Source: Atribacterota bacterium (lineage in GTDB: Bacteria > Atribacterota > Phoenicimicrobiia > Phoenicimicrobiales > Phoenicimicrobiaceae). From it: a stretch of 64,000 nucleotides of DNA. Positions 5,238-60,826 of this stretch are shown here, in pieces. The position numbers and the translations under genes were made by a program. The notes under the pieces are model-generated. The model saw only the letters and a program-made list of their open reading frames with translations, was not told the origin of the DNA and ran no database searches. The stretch spans positions 72,335-136,334 of the forward strand of contig JBBRDV010000001.1 in assembly GCA_038203565.1 (NCBI GenBank). The letters run 5' to 3'. Numbering within the stretch: position 1 is the stretch's first letter; the number at the start of each line of letters is the position of its first letter.

Positions 5238-6773
5238 TTAATACAGCCATAATTTACGATCAAGGCTTCTATATTGAATGGATTCAGATAAATGAGAAAT
5301 TTCTATCTTCTTTGATTGTTCTAAATCAGCTATGGTTCGGGCTACTTTTAATATACGGTCATAAGCTCGAGTACTTAAATTTAACTTTTCCATTGCCTTG
5401 TAAAGTAAATTTTTAGCATTGTCATCAATATTACAATATTCTTTAATCTGTTTTTTGGTCATTCGAGCATTACAAAAAATACTGTCTTCACAATATCTTT
5501 CTCTTTGTATTTTTCTTGCTCTTTCCACTCTTTCTCTTATGGTAAAAGAGTTTTCTTCAAAATCCTTCTCCATGACTTCTCGACAATTTATCCGGGGGAC
5601 TTCAATATGAATGTCAATTCGATCTAATAACGGTCCCGATATTTTTGAACGATATTTAACAATTTGAGACGAACTACAAGTGCAAACCTTAACCGGATCA
5701 CCGTAAAAGCCGCAAGGACAGGGATTTAGGGAAGATATCAACATAAAAGAAGAAGTATAACTAACAGAGCTAAGAGAGCGTGAAATGGTGACTATCCCGT
5801 CTTCCAGGGGTTGACGTAGAGATTCTAAAGCACTTCGGGAAAATTCCGGTAATTCGTCTAAAAATAGTACACCATTATGGGCCAAGCTAATTTCTCCTGG
5901 TTTGGGCGTCTTGCCTCCTCCGATTAATCCAACATTACTTATAGTATGATGCGGAGCTCTGAACGGTCTCTCCGTAACCAAAGGGGTATCCGGTGGAAGT
6001 AAATTGGCAATACTATATAATTTAGTAATTTCTATAGATTCTTCCAGGGTCAAAGAAGGAAGGATGGTTGGAAGCCTGCGTGCCAGCATGGTTTTTCCGG
6101 AACCTGGCGGACCAATCATTATAACATTGTGACTTCCAGCTGCCGCTACTTCGAAGGCTCTTTTAGCGTGTTCCTGTCCTTTAACCTCAGAAAAATCTAT
6201 TAGACTGTTTTCGCTTAGTCGAAAAATATCTTCTAAATCTATGAATACCGGTTCAATGGATATTTTTTTATTTAAAAAATCAATTACTTGGTAAAGTGAA
6301 TTAACAGGAAATACTTTTAATTCTTTAATTATCCCTGCTTCCTTAGCGTTTGCTTGAGGAATAAGCAATTTTTTTTTACCTATTTTTTTTGCCATCAAAG
6401 CAATGGGAAGCACACCATTTACCGGTTTTATACTTCCATCTAAAGATAATTCACCCATAATTAGATATTCATTTAATTGATCTGGCTTAACTTGCTTACT
6501 GGCAACTAAAATTGCCAGAGCGATAGATAGGTCAAAAATAGGACCTTCTTTTTTAATGTCCGCTGGAGCAAGATTTACCGTAATTCTCTGCATAGGAAAT
6601 TCGAATTCAGTATTTTTTATGGCGGCTCTAACTCTTTCTCGGGATTCCTGAACAGCCGTATCGGGCAATCCTACGATATTGAACGAAGGCAATCCTGGAT
6701 GAATATCAACTTCGATTTCTACCATAAAAGCTTCAACTCCGAATATAGCCGCACTATATAATTTGGATAACAA
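5238..6773 (-). CDS. YifB/ComM family Mg-chelatase-like AAA+ ATPase
   Basis: N-terminal Lon-like ChlI domain, Walker [11 protein letters not shown], and a C-terminal Mg-chelatase subunit ChlI-like region. Confidence 0.8.
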
Positions 6774-6962
6774 AAAAACACCTACTTTTTTAGTGAATAG
6801 TCATTAGTATTGTGTATTACGTTTGTTTCATCCTAACCCTAATCTTCTAAGGGGAGAGGGAATAAAGATTCTGTATCTTTTAATTCATCCCAATTGTACA
6901 CGCTAAACTCTCTACGCTGTACACTATCTTGCTATATACTCGATACTTACTTAATAATTAAA

Positions 6963-7368: not shown

Positions 7369-7543
7369 ATTAATCGTTGATTTTAAATACAACTTTTAGT
7401 TGTCAGTCTACAGTCTGGTACAAGGGAATATAATAATACAACCTCTACGCGCTTTGATTTTTCTATAAACTGGCAACTTGAAACCTATAATTATTAATTA
7501 TTAATGTATTTATTTGCTAAAGGCTATTCACTAATGACTAATT
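7369..7543. mobile_element. MITE-like dispersed repeat, copy A (~175 bp) bounded by degenerate inverted 12-mer termini
   Basis: Left end ATTAATCGTTGA; right end CTAATGACTAAT (reverse complement ATTAGTCATTAG). The core is ~80% identical to copy B at 22920-23117. Confidence 0.6.
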
Positions 7544-7559
7544 TCTTATTTTAAGTCAG

Positions 7560-8258
7560 CTACATCATTACTCTTTTATAGCTTTTTCTATGTATTTCTG
7601 ATGGGCCATACTTAAGTAGTGCTTTAAGATGTTCTTTTGTTCCATAACCTTTATTTTTTTTGAAAAGGTACTGTGGATATTTTTGGTCATATTGAATCAT
7701 AATATTATCTCTATAGACTTTAGCAACTATAGAGGCAGCAGCAATCGATATACTTCTGTCTTCACCTTTAATTAATGGTATCTGGAAAATATTTAGGTGA
7801 GGAATTTTAAAGCCGTCCACTAATAAATAATCAGGTAATTCTTTTAAATCTAAAATAGCTTTTTTCATTGCCAAAAAAGAAGCCTGAGCGATATTTATTC
7901 TATCAATAATTTTAGCTTCTACAACACCAATTCCCACGTCTTTTGCTTTACTTAAGATAGAACAATACAATTCTGTTCTTTTTTGTGAACTTAACTTTTT
8001 AGAATCTTTAATATAGGGAATAAACAATCGGCAGGGCAAAATTACTGCGGCAGCCACTACTGGCCCGGACAATGAACCCCTGCCTACCTCATCTATCCCG
8101 GCAATCAAAGAGTACCCTTCAAGTTTTAGTTGATTTTCATAGTTATAGAGATTATAAATTCTTAATCTTTCTGCATATAATCTTTCAATTTTTCTCCGAT
8201 AACTACAAATTATTGTTTTTGTTATTTTTGTTTTCCTATCTTTTACCTCAGGATCCAT
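7560..8258 (-). CDS. rnhB: ribonuclease HII
   Basis: IAGIDEVGRGSLSGPVVAAAVIL and DSKKLS motifs. Confidence 0.9.
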   Translation of the reverse strand: MDPEVKDRKTKITKTIICSYRRKIERLYAERLRIYNLYNYENQLKLEGYSLIAGIDEVGRGSLSGPVVAAAVILPCRLFIPYIKDSKKLSSQKRTELYCSILSKAKDVGIGVVEAKIIDRINIAQASFLAMKKAILDLKELPDYLLVDGFKIPHLNIFQIPLIKGEDRSISIAAASIVAKVYRDNIMIQYDQKYPQYLFKKNKGYGTKEHLKALLKYGPSEIHRKSYKRVMM

Positions 8259-10000: not shown

Positions 10001-10047
10001 TAAAATTTCTCCTTATTCACTAACGACTAATACACTAACGGCTAATT

Positions 10048-10693: not shown

Positions 10694-12016
10694 TTAATTA
10701 AAAGAAAAGTTTTTTAGTTTTGGTCCCTTTTTAAACATTTCTTTTATCTGATAAAATTGTTTGAGCAATCTATTTATATCAGAAAGCTGTGTTCCGCTCC
10801 CCCTGGATATTCTTTTCCTTCTGCTTCCGTTAATTATAGAAGGATTTTCCCTTTCTTCAACAGTCATAGAACTTATAATAGCTTCAATTTTCTTTAGTTC
10901 ACCCTCTCTATCTCCTAATTTTGCAACATCTATTCTATTTTTTAAATTATTAAATCCTGGAACCATATCCATAATCTGATCTACTGAACCAATATTTTTC
11001 ATTTTTTTTAGCTGCAAATAAAAATCATTTAAATCAAAATTATGGTCCTTCATCTTTTTGTCTAATTTTTCTAATTCATCTTTACTGTAAGCAGTTTCAA
11101 CTTTTTCTATTAGTGTCAAGACATCACCCATACCCAATATCCGAGAAGCCATTCTTTCTGGATGAAAAGGTTCAAAGTTATCAACCTTTTCGCCTATACC
11201 TATAAACTTAATAGGTACTCCTAAAACCTTTTTCAAGGATAAAGCCACTCCCCCCCGAGTGTCACCATCCAATTTGGTTAGAATAATTCCGCTTACTTTT
11301 ATTTTATCACAAAACACTTTAGCTGAATTTACCGCATCCTGCCCGGCCATAGCATCTACTATCAATAATTTTTCCTGAAGAGGAATATTTTCATTAATCT
11401 CTTGTAATTCATTCATTAGTTTATCATCTATATGTAATCTTCCGGCAGTGTCAATAATTAACATATCGTTATTTTTTTTAGATGAATATTTTATGGCAGC
11501 TTTAACAATATTTACTGCACTTTCGTTTTTACCCATGGAAAAAACCGGTAAATTTGATTTTTCACCTAATACCTGAAGTTGTTCGATAGCTGCCGGTCTG
11601 TATATATCTGTTGCTATTAAAAGCGGTAGATGCCCTTTTTTTCTAAAGTAATTAGCTAATTTTACGGCTGTTGTTGTTTTACCGGTTCCCTGCAATCCCA
11701 CTAACATTATAATAGTAGGAGGGGCAGGACTGATACTAAGGTCATTTTGTTTGCACCCTAATGTTAAAGTTATCTCCCCATTTACAATCTTTATAATTTG
11801 TTGAGAAGGTGATAGGCTTTCGGAAATCTTTTCCTCTTGTACTTTATCATGTAAACTATCTATAAATTCTTTTACCACTTTGTAATTTACATCTGCTTCT
11901 AAAAGGGCTATGCGAATTTCATGAAGACAATTTTTTATATCATTTTCATTTAATTTTCCCTTGTTTTTTATCTTTTTAAATATTGTCTGAAATTTATCAG
12001 TAAGGCTGGCAAACAT
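10694..12016 (-). CDS. ffh: signal recognition particle protein Ffh
   Basis: N-domain MFASLTDKFQ..ALLEADV, G-domain GLQGTGKTTT / DTAGR, and an M-domain with a Met-rich tail. Confidence 0.95.
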   Translation of the reverse strand: MFASLTDKFQTIFKKIKNKGKLNENDIKNCLHEIRIALLEADVNYKVVKEFIDSLHDKVQEEKISESLSPSQQIIKIVNGEITLTLGCKQNDLSISPAPPTIIMLVGLQGTGKTTTAVKLANYFRKKGHLPLLIATDIYRPAAIEQLQVLGEKSNLPVFSMGKNESAVNIVKAAIKYSSKKNNDMLIIDTAGRLHIDDKLMNELQEINENIPLQEKLLIVDAMAGQDAVNSAKVFCDKIKVSGIILTKLDGDTRGGVALSLKKVLGVPIKFIGIGEKVDNFEPFHPERMASRILGMGDVLTLIEKVETAYSKDELEKLDKKMKDHNFDLNDFYLQLKKMKNIGSVDQIMDMVPGFNNLKNRIDVAKLGDREGELKKIEAIISSMTVEERENPSIINGSRRKRISRGSGTQLSDINRLLKQFYQIKEMFKKGPKLKNFSFN

Positions 12017-22919: not shown

Positions 22920-23117
22920 ATTAGTCGTTAGCTTCAAATACAAGTTTTTAGTTATCAATTTACAGTTTATTACAATGGAGTATGATAATACAACCTTAAC
23001 ACGCTTTGAGTTTTCTAAAAACTGGCAACTTGTAACTTGAAACTTAAAACCCATAACTTATTAATCATTAATGTGTTTTATTTACTAAATACTATTCACT
23101 ATTCATTAACGACTAAT
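22920..23117. mobile_element. MITE-like dispersed repeat, copy B (~198 bp) with perfect-ish terminal inverted repeats
   Basis: ATTAGTCGTTAG ... TTAACGACTAAT termini. The core (TACAACCT..ACGCTTTGA.TTTTCTA.AAACTGGCAACTTG.AAC) aligns with copy A. Confidence 0.6.
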
Positions 23118-24525: not shown

Positions 24526-24666
24526 AGTTTTTTCCTCCCAATCTTTTGCCTATATTTAAACTTGACAATTTATTTCTAATTATTTTTAGCAGGTTCGACG
24601 TATCGTACGCCCACCTCTTAGCCTTAATCTTCTCCACGCAATACTCGATACTCGATGCTAATTACT

Positions 24667-24682
24667 ATTCACTAACGACTAA
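24667..24682. repeat. representative copy of the 17-mer boundary motif TTCACTAACGACTAAT
   Basis: The same or a one- to three-mismatch motif, in either orientation, is at 2530, 6787, 7527, 10017, 10030, 22920, 23106, 31372, 31425, 34600, 39546, 39603, 60811 and 63638, always intergenic or touching a stop codon. Confidence 0.7.
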
Positions 24683-24691
24683 TCTATATAT

Positions 24692-25776: not shown

Positions 25777-25888
25777 ATTTCTATACGCAATACACGTACG
25801 ATATGCGAGATACGGATATATTACTATCAATTTTATTGCAAATTTTGTATAATTATAACATAAAATATTTTTTAAATCGAGAAATCTT

Positions 25889-27211
25889 ATGAAAATATTA
25901 GGAATAATTACTGAATATAATCCTTTTCACAATGGCCATCTTTACCATCTTTTTAAAGCAAAAGAAATAACCAGGGCAGATTATGTAGTAGCAGTCATGA
26001 GCGGAAATTTTCTGCAGAGAGGAGAGCCGGCAATTATAAATAAATGGGCCAGAACAAAGATGGCACTCAATGCCGGTGTTGATCTGATAATTGAGCTCCC
26101 CTTTGTTTTTTCTACTCAGGATGCAAACGGTTTTGCCTTTGGAGCAGTAAAATTACTTGATTCGCTTAAGATTATAGATTATCTATGTTTTGGTTGTGAA
26201 ACTGATAACCTTGATACCCTTTACTCTATAAGCAATTTTTTACATGTTGAACCACAGAAATATAAAGAGTTGATAGTATACAATAGTAAAAACGGATACG
26301 CATTTCCCAAAGCAAGGAGCCAGGCCTTATGTGAATACCATAGGAAATTCGGAATAGACGGCTTAGAAAAAATATCAACTTTAGAGTTAAGTAAATTACT
26401 AAAATACCCCAATAATATTTTAGCATTAGAATATATAAAACATCTATTAAATCTAAAGAGCAAAATCAAGCCTATAGCCATAAAAAGAATAGGTGCAAGT
26501 TATCATCAAAAGAATATTAAAGGTAAAATTTCCAGTGCTACCTCTATCAGAAATGAAATACTAAATAATTTAAGCTCCCCTAAAACCGACCTTTTTATGC
26601 TAAATGATAAAATAAAATCAACCATTCCTCCGTCAGGATTTTCTGTATTAGAGAGGGAATTAAGAGAAGGCAGGGGCCCTATCACCCTCGACTCTTACCG
26701 GCAATCTATTTTTGCTATATTGAGAAGAATGTCATCGGATGATATTTCCCGTATTCATGGAGTAACTGAGGGATTGGAAAATAGAATAGAGAAAGCATCT
26801 TTAAAATCTTATTCCGTTGAGCAATTAATTAATTCAATTAAAACCAGGAGATATACCCGTACTAAAATTCAACGCATAATTTTGCACATTATGATGAATC
26901 TATCCAAAGAAGATATAGCCATATTCAATAAGTATGGATCTTTGTATGCAAGGGTTTTGGGATTTTCTAAAAAAGGGAAAACTCTATTAAGAGCTATTAA
27001 AAAAAATTCTTCTACGCCTTTAATCAGTAAGCTATCAAATTATTTAAGGCAAATAATTTTCGAAAAAAATAATCGTCTTCGAAATAGATTAGTTAAGATG
27101 CTTGATTATGACATTCTTGCTACTGATATATATGTTCTTGGTAATAAAAAAGCAGAAGATAGGGTGGCTCGGCTTGATTTTACTCACAAAATAGCAATAA
27201 AAAAAGACTAA
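25889..27211 (+). CDS. tmcAL: tRNA(Met) cytidine acetate ligase TmcAL (YlbM/UPF0348)
   Basis: N-terminal nucleotidyltransferase motif YNPFHNGHLYH. Conserved neighbourhood with ylbL-coaD-rsmD. Confidence 0.8.
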   Translation: MKILGIITEYNPFHNGHLYHLFKAKEITRADYVVAVMSGNFLQRGEPAIINKWARTKMALNAGVDLIIELPFVFSTQDANGFAFGAVKLLDSLKIIDYLCFGCETDNLDTLYSISNFLHVEPQKYKELIVYNSKNGYAFPKARSQALCEYHRKFGIDGLEKISTLELSKLLKYPNNILALEYIKHLLNLKSKIKPIAIKRIGASYHQKNIKGKISSATSIRNEILNNLSSPKTDLFMLNDKIKSTIPPSGFSVLERELREGRGPITLDSYRQSIFAILRRMSSDDISRIHGVTEGLENRIEKASLKSYSVEQLINSIKTRRYTRTKIQRIILHIMMNLSKEDIAIFNKYGSLYARVLGFSKKGKTLLRAIKKNSSTPLISKLSNYLRQIIFEKNNRLRNRLVKMLDYDILATDIYVLGNKKAEDRVARLDFTHKIAIKKD

Positions 27212-29474: not shown

Positions 29475-29512
29475 TAACTAACCACTAACCAGGTAACCAC
29501 TTAACCAGCTAA
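29475..29512. repeat. periodic AACCA tract in rsmD/rpmB divergent spacer
   Basis: TAACTAACCACTAACCAGGTAACCACTTAACCAGCTAAG: four AACCA copies at 8-9 nt spacing. Confidence 0.6.
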
Positions 29513-31371: not shown

Positions 31372-31438
31372 AATTAGTCGTTAGCCTGTCTGCGCCTGCC
31401 TGTGCAGGTTCGCACAGGTAGATGAATAGTCATTAGTG
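31372..31438. repeat. ~67-bp hairpin-containing intergenic element, copy 1
   Basis: ATTAGTCGTTAG-CCTGTCTGCGCCTGCCTGTGCAGGTTCGCACAGGTAGATG-AATAGTCATTAGTG. Internal 7-bp stem CCTGTGC/GCACAGG. Copy 2 lies at 39546-39614 in inverted orientation. Confidence 0.7.
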
Positions 31439-31554
31439 TTAAATACACGTTTTAAGTTTTCAGCTCTCGGTTTTCAGTAAGTAGGGCCGTATTGCTTATT
31501 CTATTAACCGGTAAACCGAGTAACTGGTCAACTAATACGATATACGATATACTG

Positions 31555-35298: not shown

Positions 35299-37941
35299 CT
35301 ATATCTTATTCCTTTCCTTTAGAATATTTTTTACAAATCTAATTTCATCTCTTTTATTTTTTACCTCTCCATCTAACTTGGCACAAAGTAATTTATTTAA
35401 AATCTGCGAATAGATCGGACCTGGTTTTAGCTGTAGTTCTTTTAATTCATTTCCTGAAATATATAGACTTTCTTTTTTATATTTTCTAAAATAGTTGTTT
35501 ATCCTTTCTTTTGCAATATTAGTGTCGCTTTCCGTCATAGCTAAAAATAATGCTTCGTTAGGTAAACCTTTTAATTTTAAATAGATAACGCTCGGTGATA
35601 TTTTAGTTTTTTGTGATATCATTTTTATGATTTGATCTAAATTTGAGTAACAATAATTTATCTTGTCTATAAACTTTTGCTTAATGATTAGCTTTTTATA
35701 AATTCTCTGTAGTTGACTTTTTTTTAGATTTCTAATTAAACAGCAAAAATATATGACCCACAATTCTATTTTTTCATCAGGTATATCGTGTGTCCAAAAA
35801 TCAAAATTGTCTTTTACCTTGTTTAATCTTTCAACTGTTGCTTCATTTAATTCAAAATCCGGAAGAATATACTTTAACGCTCCTAATTCTTCCATTCTTT
35901 TTAAAGATTTTAATGGATTTTCTTCTTTCAATATTAGAATTAATTCTTCAGTGATTCTTTTCTTTCTTAATCTGGAGAGTAATTTATCATCAATAGCTTT
36001 TTTAAGAAAATCTTCTGTTGTCCTATTCATTTTAAAATTATATCTCTGTTCAAATCTTATTGCCCGTATAATACGTGCCGGATCTTCAACAAAACTCAAA
36101 TTATACAAAACCCTGATTGTACCTATACGCAAATCTTTCTGCCCACCAAAAAAGTCGATTAATTTTCCAAAATACTTCTGGTTTAACTGGACAGCCATGG
36201 CATTTATAGTAAAATCTCTTCTATATAAGTCTTTTTTAATTGAACTTAGCTCAACCTTAGGAAAGGCTGCGGGGTATTCATAAAATTCTCTTCGCGCAGT
36301 TGCCACATCTATTTTAAAATCATCCGCTAAAATTACTATTGCGGTTCCAAATTTTTCGTGGCTTTTAGTTCTCCCTCCCAAGTCTCTTCTTAACTCTCGG
36401 GCAAATTTTATTCCTTCTCCTTCAACCACAATGTCAAGATCATAATTCTTAATCCCTAAAAATAGGTCTCTTACGATCCCACCTACCATAAAAACTGGAA
36501 AATCTAATCTATCACCTATCTCCCCAATTTTATTTAGAACATCTTTAACTCTTTTGGGAAATATTTTTTCTATTAATTCTATTTGCTTCTTTCTCTCTAT
36601 ATTGCTGCTGGTCTCAACATAAGTTGAAAATGATCTTTTGGGAATATGGCCCTCTCCATATAAATTTCTTATTAAATCAGTTCTGGTAATAATTCCTACC
36701 AATTTATCTTCTTGGCTAACAACTAGTATCCTCCCGATATCGTAATTGATCATTAATTCTTGAATTTCAGTTAAAGGAGTATTCAATTTTACGGTAACTA
36801 CCTGATCGGACATATATTTACTTACCAGCTCTTTTCCAAGTCCATGTTGTTTGGCCTTATTTACTTCCTGCGTTGTTATAATGCCCTTTAGCTCCCCCGC
36901 TTCTACTACCGGAATACCGTTATGTCCGTATCTTAATAATATTTTTTTCGTCTCTTCAATAGAAGCTAAAGTATTAACAGTCTTAATCGGTGAAGACATA
37001 ATATCTTTCGCTACAATTCCCGCCCTTACTTTTTTTTCTAAGATCCTGATAAGTTTTTTCTCTAATTCATCAAGAGATAAATCTTTTACTACAGCCGAAG
37101 CTGCCTGAAAGTGACCTCCCCCTCCTAATTCTTTTAAAACTTCATCTACGTCAACAGAATTTGTTCTACTTCTTCCAACTATATATATTCGGTCTACCAT
37201 TTTTACTATAGTAAAAAAAACATCGCTATTTTCTATTTCTATTAATTTATGAGTAAGAAGAGCTAGCCCTTCTGTATAATTTTTTACTTCTGCATTAGCC
37301 ATATTAATTCGTATGCCCTTGCAAAATATTTCCTTAGAAGAAAGCAGCAATTTATTTAATAATTTTTTTTGAGCTATGCTTAGGCCGATATTTATAAAAT
37401 TTGCTACAACTTTTAAGTTTATACCTTTATCAAATAAATAAGAAATACTATTTATATCATCAATCGTAGTAGTTGAAAAAGTAAGGGAGCCGGTATCTTC
37501 ATAAATCCCCAAGGCAAACAGAGTTGCTTCGATGGGACTAATTTCTAAATTCATTTTCCTTATTTTTTTCAACATTATGGTAGTAGTTGCCCCTACTTCT
37601 TCTATTGCATTAATGTCCCCTTTAATATCATCCGCAGTGGAGGGGTGGTGATCATAGATATGAATTTCCAAATCTCTCTTATTTATTACATTAGCAAATG
37701 GTCCAATCCGTCTTTTTATTCTAGTGTCAACTATTATCAATTTATTAATTTCTTCTATTTTAATTTTCTTAATAGGGGTTATCTCTATCAAATCGCCATA
37801 CATAGAGATAAATTTTCTTACATTTCTCTCTATTGCTCCGGTAAATACTAAAAGAGCGTCTTTATATATTTTTTTGGCTGCCACCATAGCAGCCAAAGAA
37901 TCAAAATCAGTGCTTTGATGACTTATAATTACTTCCAACAA
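35299..37941 (-). CDS. multidomain DHH-DHHA1 / CBS pair / poly(A) polymerase-head (tRNA nucleotidyltransferase-like) / HD protein
   Basis: N-terminal DHH motifs (HQSTDFDSL.., ..DHHP), DHHA1 (GGGH), two CBS domains, then a nucleotidyltransferase head (GG.VRD.. ..DLDIVVEG..RRDFTINA) and a C-terminal helical/HD-like region. Confidence 0.7.
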   Translation of the reverse strand: MLEVIISHQSTDFDSLAAMVAAKKIYKDALLVFTGAIERNVRKFISMYGDLIEITPIKKIKIEEINKLIIVDTRIKRRIGPFANVINKRDLEIHIYDHHPSTADDIKGDINAIEEVGATTTIMLKKIRKMNLEISPIEATLFALGIYEDTGSLTFSTTTIDDINSISYLFDKGINLKVVANFINIGLSIAQKKLLNKLLLSSKEIFCKGIRINMANAEVKNYTEGLALLTHKLIEIENSDVFFTIVKMVDRIYIVGRSRTNSVDVDEVLKELGGGGHFQAASAVVKDLSLDELEKKLIRILEKKVRAGIVAKDIMSSPIKTVNTLASIEETKKILLRYGHNGIPVVEAGELKGIITTQEVNKAKQHGLGKELVSKYMSDQVVTVKLNTPLTEIQELMINYDIGRILVVSQEDKLVGIITRTDLIRNLYGEGHIPKRSFSTYVETSSNIERKKQIELIEKIFPKRVKDVLNKIGEIGDRLDFPVFMVGGIVRDLFLGIKNYDLDIVVEGEGIKFARELRRDLGGRTKSHEKFGTAIVILADDFKIDVATARREFYEYPAAFPKVELSSIKKDLYRRDFTINAMAVQLNQKYFGKLIDFFGGQKDLRIGTIRVLYNLSFVEDPARIIRAIRFEQRYNFKMNRTTEDFLKKAIDDKLLSRLRKKRITEELILILKEENPLKSLKRMEELGALKYILPDFELNEATVERLNKVKDNFDFWTHDIPDEKIELWVIYFCCLIRNLKKSQLQRIYKKLIIKQKFIDKINYCYSNLDQIIKMISQKTKISPSVIYLKLKGLPNEALFLAMTESDTNIAKERINNYFRKYKKESLYISGNELKELQLKPGPIYSQILNKLLCAKLDGEVKNKRDEIRFVKNILKERNKI

Positions 37942-37989
37942 AAAAACCTTCTTTTTTATTTTTTTATTAAAATTATAGCATAAATAAAC

Positions 37990-38160
37990 AAATGATAGAA
38001 CATAGTATTTCGTATTTCGTATTTCGTTAAGAAAGACTAGCGCAGAGTGTGTAGCGTTTAGTGTAGAGTTAAGAAAGAAGAATACAAAAGTCTAATTCGT
38101 ATTTGGTGAATCGTATCTCGGATGTAACGATATACCATATACGATATACGATATACGATT
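37990..38160. repeat. cluster of 7-bp-periodic tandem repeats and ACGCT-module
   Basis: (GTATTTC)x3 at 38004-38026; CTAGCGCAGAGTGTGTAGCGTTTAGTGTAGAG, the reverse complement of the CTCTACGCTAAACGCT..CACT module; CGTATCTCG; and (ATACGAT)x3 ending at the pdp stop. Confidence 0.7.
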
Positions 38161-39487: not shown

Positions 39488-39545
39488 TTAATGTTTCCTC
39501 CCAATTGTATTCTTTGGGAATTTTTTTTGCATTTTGTATTTAAAA

Positions 39546-39614
39546 CTAACGACTATTCATCTACCTGTGCGAACCTGCACAGTCAGGCGCAGACAGGATA
39601 TTTACTAATGACTA
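39546..39614. repeat. ~67-bp hairpin-containing intergenic element, copy 2 (inverted, overlaps hppA stop codon)
   Basis: Reverse complement is nearly identical to 31372-31438, differing at one position. Confidence 0.7.
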
Positions 39615-41576
39615 TTTTATAAATAGAGGAACAAACACCAGAGCGACTATAGACATTACTTTAATTAATATATTCATAGAAGGGCCGGCAGTATCTTTAA
39701 GAGGATCACCTACAGTATCACCTATAACTGCGGCCTCATGGACTTTTGTACCTTTTCCCCCATAATTTCCCATTTCAATATATTTTTTGGCATTATCCCA
39801 AGCTCCTCCGGAATTGGCCATCTGTATAGCCAACAATACTCCTACTAACACTGCTCCAATCAACATTCCTCCCAATGCTTCTGGTCCAAGTACTATTCCT
39901 ACTACTATAGGGGCAATTATGGCTAACAACCCGGGCAATACCATCTCTTTTAAAGCTCCTTTAGTGCTAATATCTACACATCTCGCAGAATCCGGCTTAG
40001 CTTTTCCCTCTTTCAAACCAGGAATTTCTCTAAATTGCCTTCGAACTTCTTCTATCATTAAGAAAGCTGTTTTCCCTACTGCATTTATGGCTAAAGCAGA
40101 AAAAAGATAAGGCAAAAGACCACCTATAAACATCCCGGCTACCACTATCGGATTGGTTATGCTTATAGTTTCTAAACCTACAGATTTACAATAAGCTGAA
40201 AATAAAGCCAAAGCAGTTAATGCTGCTGAGCCGATAGCAAAACCCTTTCCAATAGCAGCTGTGGTATTTCCTACAGCATCTAATGAATCGGTAATTTTTC
40301 GAACCTTGGGATCCAGCCCGGCCATTTCGGCAATTCCACCCGAATTATCAGCAATCGGACCATAGGAATCAACGGAAACCGTCATGCCGACTATAGAAAG
40401 CATTCCTACCGCTGAAACAGCAATACCGTATAAACCCGCGAATTTATAGGCAACTAATACCGTAAAGGCAATCACGAGTAGTGGTATAGCAGTACTTTGC
40501 ATACCGACAGCCAATCCCGAAATAATGGTAGTTGCTGCTCCGGTAAGTGATGATTTAGAAATTGATTTTACCGGAGGATAATGGTAAGAGGTATAATATT
40601 CAGTTACTAATCCGATAATTATACCGGCAATCAATCCAGCGGTAGTGGCATAAAATACATTTAAACTATTAAATAAAACATTAGAAAGAAAAGCAGAAGC
40701 AATAATAACTAAAAATCCGCTTGCCAAAGTTCCTTTGGTTAAAGCAAGATTTAGATTCTTTTCACTTTTAGTATTTACAAAAAAGGTGCCTATAATAGAA
40801 GAAATTGCCCCACAAGCAGCTAACAATAGAGGGAACATAACTCCTTTAGCCCCTTCAAATAATAATCCACCTAAGATCATGCTGGAAATAATTGCACCTA
40901 CATAAGATTCAAATAGGTCTGCACCCATTCCGGCTATATCCCCTACATTATCCCCTACATTATCAGCGATAACTGCCGGGTTACGAGGGTCATCTTCGGG
41001 TATCCCTACTTCCACCTTTCCCACTAAATCAGCTCCCACATCTGCTGCCTTAGTAAATATTCCACCACCTACTCTGGCAAATAAGGCTATAGAGCTCGCG
41101 CCTAAAGCAAATCCATTTATAATTTCCGGGTCTCTGATGAAGTAATATAAAATACCTAAACCTAATAATCCAAAACCTGCTACCGACATACCCATTACTG
41201 CACCACCGGAAAAAGCAATTTTTAATGCTTTGCTTATTCCGCCATCCATGGCAGCATGAGCAGTCCTCGAATTTGCTTTAGTGGCAATTTTCATTCCGGT
41301 TAAACCTGCTAATCCAGAACAAATTGCCCCCACCACAAAAGATAAGCTGGTAATAGGGTTTCTCACCCAGCCCAGTACAAGACTAACTACAATGATAAAA
41401 AATACTAAAACGCTATATTCTCTTTTTAAAAAAGCCATAGCTCCCTGTTCAATCATCTTTGATATTTCTTGCATTAATTCATTTCCCGGTTTTTCTCTAA
41501 TTACCTTCAGAGAAAGAAATACGGCAAATATAAGGCTAATTATGCCACTAAGAGGGATTAACAGTTCAATTTGCAT
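39612..41576 (-). CDS. hppA: membrane-bound ion-translocating pyrophosphatase
   Basis: 654-aa polytopic protein with the V-PPase signature GDNVGD..DLFESY.. and GDTVGDP.. Confidence 0.9.
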
Positions 41577-41724: not shown

Positions 41725-41754
41725 TCTCCAATTGGATAATTGGCCAATTGGAGA
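41725..41754. promoter_or_regulatory. 30-bp palindrome between ppdK and hppA
   Basis: TCTCCAATTGG-ATAATTGG-CCAATTGGAGA. Perfect 11-bp arms; the core CCAATTGG is itself palindromic. Candidate operator upstream of hppA. Confidence 0.45.
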
Positions 41755-41766
41755 ATCGGTGAATTA

Positions 41767-48374: not shown

Positions 48375-48672
48375 AACTAAATATAGTATCGAGTATCAAG
48401 TATCCAGTATCGAGCGAAGGAAATCGGTTGTCAGTTATCGGTTATAATTTTTAAATAAAGAAATAAAAAGAATTGGATTCTGTATTCTGACTTCTTTTTA
48501 TTAACTAACCAGCAAGGGATGCAATGTGTAACATTTGGTAAGTAACGTGTAATAAGTAACCCGTTGTTGTAAATCCAGAACTATAGTTTTATTACATATT
48601 ACTTAATACTGTGTTCTTTTCACTCTACGCTAAACGCTCCACACTAGTTTGCACGAGATACGAGATACGAAT
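48375..48672. repeat. two repeat clusters in the recO-glyQ spacer
   Basis: 48380-48415 TATCGAGTATCAAGTATCCAGTATCGAG (TCGAGTA-type heptads) and 48612-48672 CTCTACGCTAAACGCTCCACACTAGTTTGCACGAGATACGAGATACGA. Confidence 0.65.
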
Positions 48673-60767: not shown

Positions 60768-60826
60768 AAAGTGTAAAACGCTAAACGCTGTACACTCTTC
60801 GCTAGTTTTGTTCGCTAACGATTAAT
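60768..60826. repeat. composite intergenic repeat: ACGCT module + 17-mer terminus
   Basis: AAAACGCTAAACGCTGTACACTCTTCGCTAGTTTTGTTCGCTAACGATTAAT. Modules of the same kind occur at 2481-2554, 6896-6952, 24593-24684, 25781-25826 and 31532-31552. Confidence 0.65.

Follow-up and report, generated by a model that had tools for sequence, protein, structure and literature searches.

What are the 7-nucleotide tandem repeats that fill so many of the spacers between genes in an uncultured sediment bacterium, and do they act on the genes beside them? We address this question with 64,000 nucleotides of contig JBBRDV010000001.1 from an Atribacterota bacterium (positions 72,335 to 136,334 of the forward strand; assembly GCA_038203565.1), hereafter called the window. 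Our focal case is the spacer at 37942-38158, just past the stop codon of a pyrimidine-nucleoside phosphorylase gene (pdp), where perfect arrays of 7-nt units (heptads) lie beside a longer module built from heptads containing ACGCT. An original prediction, made from the letters alone, had described a mosaic family of heptad-periodic repeats in the spacers of the window. Three points were absent from it, namely the polarity of the repeats relative to genes, their lineage-wide distribution and a precedent in Xanthomonas and Nostoc.

The repeats lie where they had been predicted. Tandem Repeats Finder reported period-7 arrays at 38005-38027 (GTATTTC, 3.3 copies, 100% matches), 38127-38159, 48653-48670, 48385-48414, 24641-24656, 2486-2509 and 2514-2533, together with arrays not previously listed at 31535-31552 and 23019-23050. 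Two further sequences that had been singled out, GTATCGAGTATCG and CGATATGCGAGATACGGATATA, begin at 2494 and 25799, each at most one base from its predicted position. A search with ACGCTNNACRCT as query for the ACGCT module, allowing at most one mismatch, returned 11 matches against 1.6 expected, and these coincide with exactly the five modules that had been named (2514, 6900, 38046 on the minus strand, 48627 and 60778). A 17-nt sequence, the boundary 17-mer, was matched 10 times with at most three mismatches, against 0.94 expected, and all matches fell on one strand. The modules had been said to be usually followed by this 17-mer, which was overstated, since this holds directly for two of the five (2514 and 60778). 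The window has seven exact period-7 tandems that are 16 nt or longer, and six of them are intergenic. Autocorrelation of the window's spacers gave z=11.5 at lag 7 and z=4.7 at lag 14, the remaining lags lying within about 1.6 of zero except for lags 1, 2 and 4 (z=3-4), and coding DNA is without such periodicity. The description of a mosaic, heptad-periodic family confined to spacers is borne out by these counts.

The vocabulary of the arrays was obtained by counting the 5-mers that recur 7 nt later and by comparing these counts with those at neighbouring lags. ATACT / AGTAT recur 149 / 126 times at lag 7 (about 3 at neighbouring lags), TTAGT / ACTAA 123 / 112 times (about 5-6), AGCGT / ACGCT 87 / 86 times (0-0.4), GATAC / GTATC 86 / 64 times (about 0.5), TAGTG / CACTA 59 / 51 times (0.2-0.8) and CGTAT / ATACG 54 / 54 times (0.2). 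For AGCGT, 23% of all occurrences are lag-7 recurrences. Since a few 5-mer cores dominate the recurrence, the heptad unit is a 5-nt core followed by two (or three) variable bases. About four core families are found in phase (AGCGT, AGTAT, CGTAT and TAGTC/TAGTG), and different families sit in phase inside a single array. In-phase core pairs are present in 213 of 429 spacers. The 103 kb of spacer contain 309 in-phase matches, and the 601 kb of coding DNA contain 32.

Part of this vocabulary is fixed into longer pieces that are dispersed. The AGCGT/ACGCT module is about 30 nt long and reads AAACT-AGCGT(AG/AT)-AGCGT(AC)-AGCGT(TT)-AGCGT-ATAG, with 3-5 units. In 60 copies, taken from unlinked sites and several genomes, the internal order of spacer dinucleotides is the same, and only 8 of 97 pairs of neighbouring dinucleotides are identical; this indicates that the copies are one dispersed element and not the product of fresh slippage. 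A composite of about 115 nt at 48385-48500 (plus strand), which consists of 4.3 copies of AGTATCG, then GAAGGAAATCGGTTGTCAGTTATCGGTT and more, up to TTCTGTATTCTGACTTCTTTTT, is also found downstream of pdp in locus L015 and in part in L008, at a non-orthologous site.

The arrays have a direction that is set by the genes around them, and this polarity is the main new result. We term the G/T-rich cores AGCGT, AGTAT, CGTAT, TAGTC and TAGTG F cores and their complements R cores. Within arrays, 1103 neighbouring units share the same orientation (562 FF, 541 RR) and 12 are mixed. Where neighbouring genes run in the same direction, the window and 16 genome loci have 58 of 71 F pairs in the first fifth of the spacer, just past the stop codon, and 55 of 58 R pairs in its last two fifths. 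An independent metagenome set, for which only the three families not used for fetching the loci were counted, had 124 of 143 F cores in the left half of the spacer and 137 of 166 R cores in the right half, with the same placement for co-directional, divergent and convergent gene pairs (all four arrangements). For F-oriented boundary copies the nearest gene border lies on the 5' side in 109 of 131 cases, and it is a same-strand stop (55) about as often as an opposite-strand start (54). The arrays are one-directional, and their G/T-rich strand reads outward from the adjacent gene at stops and starts alike. The module at 38041-38070 follows the same rule: it is the sole copy in its orientation on the plus strand of the window because it is start-proximal in its spacer, the other four modules being stop-proximal. 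Across Atribacterota spacers the GC skew falls from +0.22 to +0.01; control lineages have a gradient in the same direction, which is weaker (+0.08 to +0.05).

Array length differs between closely related sequences in steps of one unit. Four contigs from an independent Logan assembly of run SRR19962010 overlap the window over 14.2 kb, and the single difference is one heptad missing from the focal ACGATAT array in contig L001, whose encoded proteins are identical to those of the window; exact-protein look-ups for population variants yielded contigs from this run only. Alignment of spacers with more distant relatives revealed three 7-nt indels and a 21-nt indel equal to three boundary heptads. 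Perfect arrays, for example (ACGATAT)4.7 and (GTATTTC)3.3, behave like slippage-prone repeats. The proposal that heptad number is hypervariable thereby has direct though thin support, in a very small number of unit-sized indels within one sample and against relatives. The length of orthologous pdp spacers varies between about 74 and 575 nt. They begin with different heptad families, the array starting 0-3 nt from the stop codon or overlapping it, and some of them are without any array.

The modules are not peculiar to the window, which removes one ground on which the original prediction could have been refuted. The same ones occur at 16 loci of related Atribacterota genomes and in no fewer than 120 metagenome stretches, which carry the exact boundary 17-mer; the sequence gathered in this way amounts to about 970 kb of Atribacterota type. 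Crude spacer DNA has a lag-7 z of 2.3-12.4 in all 10 Atribacterota loci long enough for testing, and of about 0 in some 40 loci of other phyla with pdp, except L025 (z=6.7), L031 (z=3.5) and L077 (z=2.9). L025 and L031 are uncultured Actinomycetota metagenome-assembled genomes (MAGs). In MAGs of this phylum, heptad arrays stand directly past the pdp stop codon in L025 (10 copies of GATGGCT at 11300-11369) and in L023 (4.7 copies of ATAGCCG at 7655-7687); therefore, the phenomenon recurs in a second phylum with different units. A viral origin was considered and rejected, the boundary 17-mer being present in only 7 viral contigs; matches there to a 15-base AGCGT pattern could not be interpreted, the pattern being too unspecific.

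Several familiar kinds of sequence were compared with the arrays. That the family is not a CRISPR (clustered regularly interspaced short palindromic repeats) array, a terminator or a coding sequence had been proposed earlier, and our results agree and extend the statement to Rfam families. The units are 7 nt long and contiguous, and no family of 23-55-nt repeats with unique spacers was found; no intrinsic terminator (GC-rich hairpin followed by a T-run) is present in the spacer at 37942-38158; the repeats are excluded from open reading frames (ORFs). Rfam gave no match in the window at curated score and nothing credible at E<=1, and no tRNA was found in it. G-quadruplexes, which take at least four tracts of at least three G, find no material in units from which GGG is absent. 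The palindromes of REP/BIME and REPIN elements are not found in the heptad modules, which are direct repeats, although separate GC-rich hairpins exist. Rho-loading (rut) sites were set aside because the A/C-rich strand has few YC dinucleotides, as judged by inspection only. A three-frame stop barrier was likewise rejected: (TAGNNNN)3 does place a stop in every frame, yet the other families contain no stops, both orientations of the boundary carry stops, and the polarity would be left unexplained.

The repeats are instead lineage-specific heptanucleotide intergenic repeats, of the same class as the cyanobacterial STRRs and the Xanthomonas and Nostoc heptamers. Each mark of intergenic heptanucleotide simple sequence repeats of the STRR, long simple sequence repeat or Xanthomonas type was found, namely tandem 7-nt units, non-coding bias, dispersal, strand polarity and copy-number variation, the last in a small number of events. 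The literature that we searched held no paper linking Atribacterota with tandem or intergenic repeats. Rehm et al. (2015) described the heptamers GGGAATC of Xanthomonas and GGGGAYT of Nostoc, which are intergenic and mostly occur as 4 units (PMC4692102). Just past a stop codon their G-rich strand is the coding one, and immediately ahead of an ORF it is the non-coding one; convergent pairs number 70-75, close relatives differ in the repeats, the neighbouring genes belong to all classes, and no function has been assigned (PMC4692102). The Atribacterota repeats have in common with them the 7-nt unit, a copy number of mostly about 4, the intergenic bias, the placement, the polarity, frequent convergent pairs, variation in length and sequence between close relatives, and neighbours of all functional classes. 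Unlike them, they are without G-tracts and form no G-quadruplexes, comprise at least four A/T-rich core families where Xanthomonas and Nostoc each have one unit, and are embedded in modules of about 30 nt and a mosaic of companion segments, in a host that is uncultured.

Other known systems resemble the Atribacterota repeats in part. As related in PMC4679880 and PMC4692102, Mrazek (2007) found that several lineages favour heptanucleotides among their long simple repeats, and proposed polymerase slippage as the cause. The STRRs of cyanobacteria and the long simple sequence repeats of that study are similar in that several heptanucleotide tandem repeats are dispersed through the intergenic DNA of one lineage; their unit sequences are unrelated to those found here, and neither an ORF-relative polarity nor a core of 5+2 bases is mentioned in the parts of their descriptions available to us. 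In marine Beggiatoaceae, TAACTGA direct repeats, for which cold-shock proteins (Csp) and S1 were proposed as readers (MacGregor, 2015), are intergenic heptamers in 2-6 copies near gene borders and are found in ribosomal-protein operons too (PMC4679880). Those repeats consist of one unit only, which in most cases stands immediately before the start codon in place of the Shine-Dalgarno sequence (PMC4679880), whereas the Atribacterota repeats comprise several families at both gene ends and leave a normal Shine-Dalgarno sequence in place. The REP/BIME elements of E. coli, REPINs (PMC3116915) and the NIMEs of Neisseria are also short extragenic modules in variable order, often at gene 3' ends, of high copy number and lineage-specific. 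REP/BIME elements are palindromes and the Atribacterota heptads direct repeats; a period of 7 is foreign to the former, and for the latter no RAYT-type transposase is known from the genome fragments at hand. Atribacterota spacers do contain scattered GC-rich hairpins of REP-like kind.

The reading that we favour, and to which we give about an even chance, is that dispersed non-coding modules and slippage-prone arrays have been purged from ORFs, fill the free space between genes and have been filtered by orientation. Two layers would be at work. Short stereotyped modules (the AAAACT(AGCGTNN)3-5 module of about 30 nt, boundary arrays of the form (TAGTNNN)n and a small set of companion segments) would be copied to many unlinked spacers, and perfect arrays such as (ACGATAT)n and (GTATTTC)n would change size in 7-nt steps via slipped-strand mispairing. 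One likely reason for the exclusion from ORFs is the frame shift that a 7-nt step would bring. The repeats would occupy all free space from the stop codon to the next promoter or ribosome-binding site, and selection appears to keep those copies whose sense strand is G/T-rich past stops and A/C-rich ahead of starts. Most likely they are non-gene-specific and largely selfish or neutral spacer DNA and do not regulate adjacent genes. Within this account the periodicity, the vocabulary, the dispersal, the polarity and the unit-sized indels are direct observations, while slippage as the means of resizing, the way in which modules are copied and selection behind the polarity are inferences.

Several points weigh against this account. 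No copying enzyme, transposase or target-site duplication turned up, in material that consists of genome fragments only and was not searched systematically for them. The evidence for copy-number change amounts to very few events, one of which is possibly an assembly artefact. The rule of an A/C-rich leader is not absolute either, as an F-type boundary lies directly upstream of a ribosome-binding site in the spacer between a KH-protein gene and rimM. The GC-skew gradient of the control lineages is weak, and a selective reason for the polarity is something that we infer. Finally, species whose Pdp proteins share 73-96% identity have kept the 5-nt cores in common, and the arrays are strictly homo-oriented, both of which would be equally expected of a strand-specific binding protein.

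Such a protein is the main rival to the account just given, and we regard it as possible, though unlikely. The arrays would be tandem sites at which a protein that binds single-stranded nucleic acid, with one copy for every 7 nt, coats the G/U-rich RNA or the displaced DNA strand as polymerase leaves the ORF. It would provide generic punctuation of gene borders by way of antitermination, insulation or the protection of ends. A cold-shock-domain protein is one candidate, and a HutP-like ring protein is another for the (UAG-N4)n boundary. The period of exactly 7, the conserved 5-nt core with two free positions, the in-phase mixing of families within one array and the one-directional arrays with a polarity set by ORF borders would all follow from it. 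On the coding strand the boundary reads UAGUCGU UAGUGAA UAGUCGU, that is (UAGNNNN)3-6 with at least three UAG triplets 4 nt apart, which we take to be the recognition pattern of HutP. CspB, moreover, binds heptamers with one protein per heptamer (PMC4679880). No candidate protein has been identified, however. The G/T-rich strand is antisense at gene starts, and a role in sense mRNA therefore cannot account for the two gene ends alike. Orthologous spacers exchange one family for another freely, some being without arrays, and half of all spacers have no heptads. A wider version, in which a cold-shock-domain-like or HutP-like single-strand protein that takes up 7 nt per subunit would read quadruplex-independent punctuation at gene borders and insulate transcription units in Atribacterota, Xanthomonas, Nostoc and some uncultured Actinomycetota, each with different units, is put forward equally tentatively. 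Recognition on duplex DNA, by contrast, we consider improbable. Here a ribbon-helix-helix or nucleoid-associated protein would bind the arrays in the manner of iterons or operators, after the example of omega/ParB of pSM19035, which reads contiguous 7-bp sites on duplex DNA (PMC9499535). The parS arrays of that plasmid share with ours contiguous 7-bp units, a conserved core and several units per array; omega needs at least 4 contiguous heptads (PMC9499535), the arrays described here typically have 3-5, and some of them end just upstream of promoters. Omega arrays, however, mix orientations and are few per replicon, at specific promoters (PMC9499535), whereas the Atribacterota arrays are homo-oriented, genome-wide and untied to particular promoters. 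They also lie inside operons and directly past stop codons, are not conserved at orthologous promoters and, from DNA geometry, their 7-bp spacing should put successive sites on different faces of the helix. Among the 30 of 55 window ORFs that were scanned, none encodes a candidate binding protein of this kind. From the sequences compared, an iteron-like or nucleoid-binding role, as originally suggested, would fit poorly with one-directional arrays and the rapid replacement of orthologous spacers.

Two further possibilities make the spacer itself the active unit. In foldback, MITE-like (miniature inverted-repeat transposable element) or hairpin elements, the heptad arms would pair into processing, stabilising or terminator stems, or act as transposase-binding terminal repeats. 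The focal spacer does fold better than its shuffled versions, with its two arrays paired (z=-3.5), clear palindromic spacers exist (4305-4385 of L121 and several in L089), an element of about 175 nt has inverted boundary ends, and F and R arrays co-occur in spacers above chance (odds ratio 3.4). We nonetheless find this explanation quite doubtful. No difference in RNAfold z-score was found between 47 Atribacterota and 60 control spacers (p=0.51), arms from the same spacer were no more complementary than foreign arms (p=0.86), matching of arm families was absent in three of four families, and 138 of the 213 repeat-bearing spacers have a single arm type. Where a 38-nt hairpin is inserted in a boundary array, no target-site duplication was seen by eye, no systematic search for duplications or transposases having been made. 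Contingency loci, whose heptad copy number would switch the expression of neighbouring genes, had also been among the functions first suggested, and the change of copy number in 7-nt steps is what they would display. However, the arrays lie outside ORFs and either upstream of the -35 element or past stop codons, so that a 7-nt change leaves both the reading frame and the -35/-10 spacing intact. With housekeeping genes as neighbours and identical proteins encoded by the L001 variant, this is the least probable of the explanations, and a very remote one.

The Atribacterota repeats bear on how the systems most like them are interpreted. They are a quadruplex-free version of a known, unexplained repeat class. 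Because their units are without G-tracts, the G-quadruplex cannot be the principle common to the Atribacterota, Xanthomonas and Nostoc repeats. The Xanthomonas and Nostoc case was read through G-quadruplex formation; we argue that periodicity and orientation, not the quadruplex, are the shared principle, for which Atribacterota offer a second, independent test system. The repeats also have a practical side. Two of the four Logan contigs stop inside repeat-bearing spacers (L001 at window position 39574 and L203 at 31411), which suggests that the repeats fragment short-read assemblies of the lineage. Their presence in about half of the spacers, together with contigs that end in them, bears on MAG quality for a globally abundant subsurface phylum.

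The window has a G+C content of 32% and an intergenic share of 7.5%, and its minus strand holds nearly all genes. All 30 scanned ORFs are housekeeping genes, for example rpsP, rplS, pta-ackA, glyQS, recO, cmk, ispH, plsY and those for H+-pyrophosphatase and PPDK. The Pdp protein encoded next to the focal spacer shares 96% identity with its counterpart in 'Candidatus Sediminicultor sextus' and 73-95% with those of 15 further Atribacterota genomes. By gene content and Pdp identity, the window is a core chromosome segment of a JS1-type Atribacterota.

In the focal spacer all features are assigned to the minus strand. The perfect array at 38127-38159 (ACGATAT on the plus strand, TCGTATA on the coding strand, 4.7 copies) abuts the pdp stop codon and is the one that has a unit fewer in L001. 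It is followed at 38100-38126 by degenerate CGTAT/CGAGATA-type heptads, TCGTATTTGGTGAATCGTATCTCGGATGTA, which are kept in L002 and L004, and at 38071-38099 by a module companion segment that is pyrimidine-rich on the coding strand, TTGTATTCTTCTTTCTTAAC, and whose complement GGAAAGAAGAAGA recurs beside modules at other loci. The ACGCT module at 38041-38070 reads CTCTACACTAAACGCTACACACTCTGCGCTAG on the coding strand. The second perfect array, at 38005-38027 (GTATTTC on the plus strand, CGAAATA on the coding strand, 3.3 copies), ends about 24 nt upstream of an extended -10 box, TGCTATAAT, at 37972-37980. This box, which belongs to the downstream gene of CBS/DHH/PolyA-polymerase type, marks the inner limit of the repeat-filled region and is kept across orthologous spacers; it was missed by a strict -35/-10 scan. 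The minus-strand ORF at 35299-37941 encodes 880 amino acids in which DHH/DHHA1 and two CBS domains are joined to a head domain of the PolyA-polymerase/tRNA-nucleotidyltransferase type, an unusual fusion for an enzyme of the CCA-adding type.

The remaining arrays of the window lie on the minus strand unless stated otherwise. Between 48623 and 48670, an ACGCT module (48623-48645, matched by ACGCTNNACRCT) adjoins 2.6 copies of ACGAGAT (48653-48670) that lie 10 nt past the recO stop codon. Further modules are found at 60776-60826, where boundary heptads TTCGCTAACGATTAAT follow and abut a stop codon; at 6900-6950, with ATACTCGATACT heptads; and at 2486-2556, a 70-nt spacer made up entirely of repeats, which on the coding strand runs from the boundary through AAAACT and three copies of AGCGTNN to three copies of CGATACN. 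Other arrays include 2.3 copies of ATACTCG with the exact boundary 17-mer just past the pta stop codon (24641-24683), 2.6 copies of ATACGAT 2 nt from the stop codon of a pseudouridine synthase gene (31535-31552) and, on the plus strand, degenerate ATACG-type heptads (25783-25825) upstream of the only plus-strand gene (25889-27211). Boundary heptads are found at further places. They read TTAGTGAATAGTCATTAGTA on the plus strand at 6790-6812, directly upstream of the Shine-Dalgarno sequence of the gene at 5238-6773, and consist of two ACTATTC units with TTCATTAACGACTAAT downstream of ackA (23091-23117). Two tandem boundary units fill the intercistronic spacer between the KH-protein gene and rimM in the rpsP operon (10016-10046), and a weak unit with 3 mismatches at 39601-39616 overlaps the stop codon of the H+-pyrophosphatase gene (39612-41576).

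The boundary unit past the rnhB stop codon (7527-7542, minus strand) doubles as the right end of a conserved element of about 175 nt. This element occurs in the window at 7380-7545 and 22943-23117, with 76% identity between the copies, and in L102 at about 690-900. Its ends are inverted boundary heptads, ATTAGTCGTTAG ... CTAACGACTAAT, and it contains a run of (AACTTGN)n heptads and a promoter-like TTTACA-N17/18-TATGATAAT on the plus strand. It has no Rfam match and may be either a MITE or the gene of a small RNA. L102 also has a higher-order repeat made of heptads, a 52-nt unit of boundary heptads and TTTCAAATACAAAATACAA that is present three times in tandem at 547-700. Arrays of period 8, of the CAATTGGA/AATCGGTC and CTAACCAG types, lie beside heptads at spacer ends in the window (41728-41759 and 29478-29512) and in L009 (about 7900-8010 and 11400-11495), and the first of these contains an 8-nt indel relative to L008.

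Hairpins make up another part of the mosaic. A 75-nt repeat is present at 31373-31447 and 39535-39609 of the window in opposite orientations (91% complementary), and its GC-rich hairpin, CCTGTGCAGGTTCGCACAGG, was apparently inserted within a boundary heptad array. Similar REP-like hairpins, GACAGGCGAGACGCCTGTC, GGGTCGGATTTATCCGACCC and AGCGGGCTTGATGAATCAAGCCC, are found in L002, L006, L009 and L089. A C-rich/G-rich hairpin, CCCTAACCCTCTCCC...GGGGAGAGGG, follows heptad arrays at 6832-6860 of the window and downstream of pdp in L013 and L016; it is a dispersed module and possibly a terminator. Long repeat-flanked regions were considered as autonomous elements and set aside, those at 2260-3390 of L150 and 3220-5300 of L155 being without a long ORF by eye, with no transposase or Pfam search made. 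Within L150, the long ORF-free spacer flanked by repeats at about 2700-2960 contains a GC-rich, structured-looking stretch that may be a riboswitch or another RNA gene.

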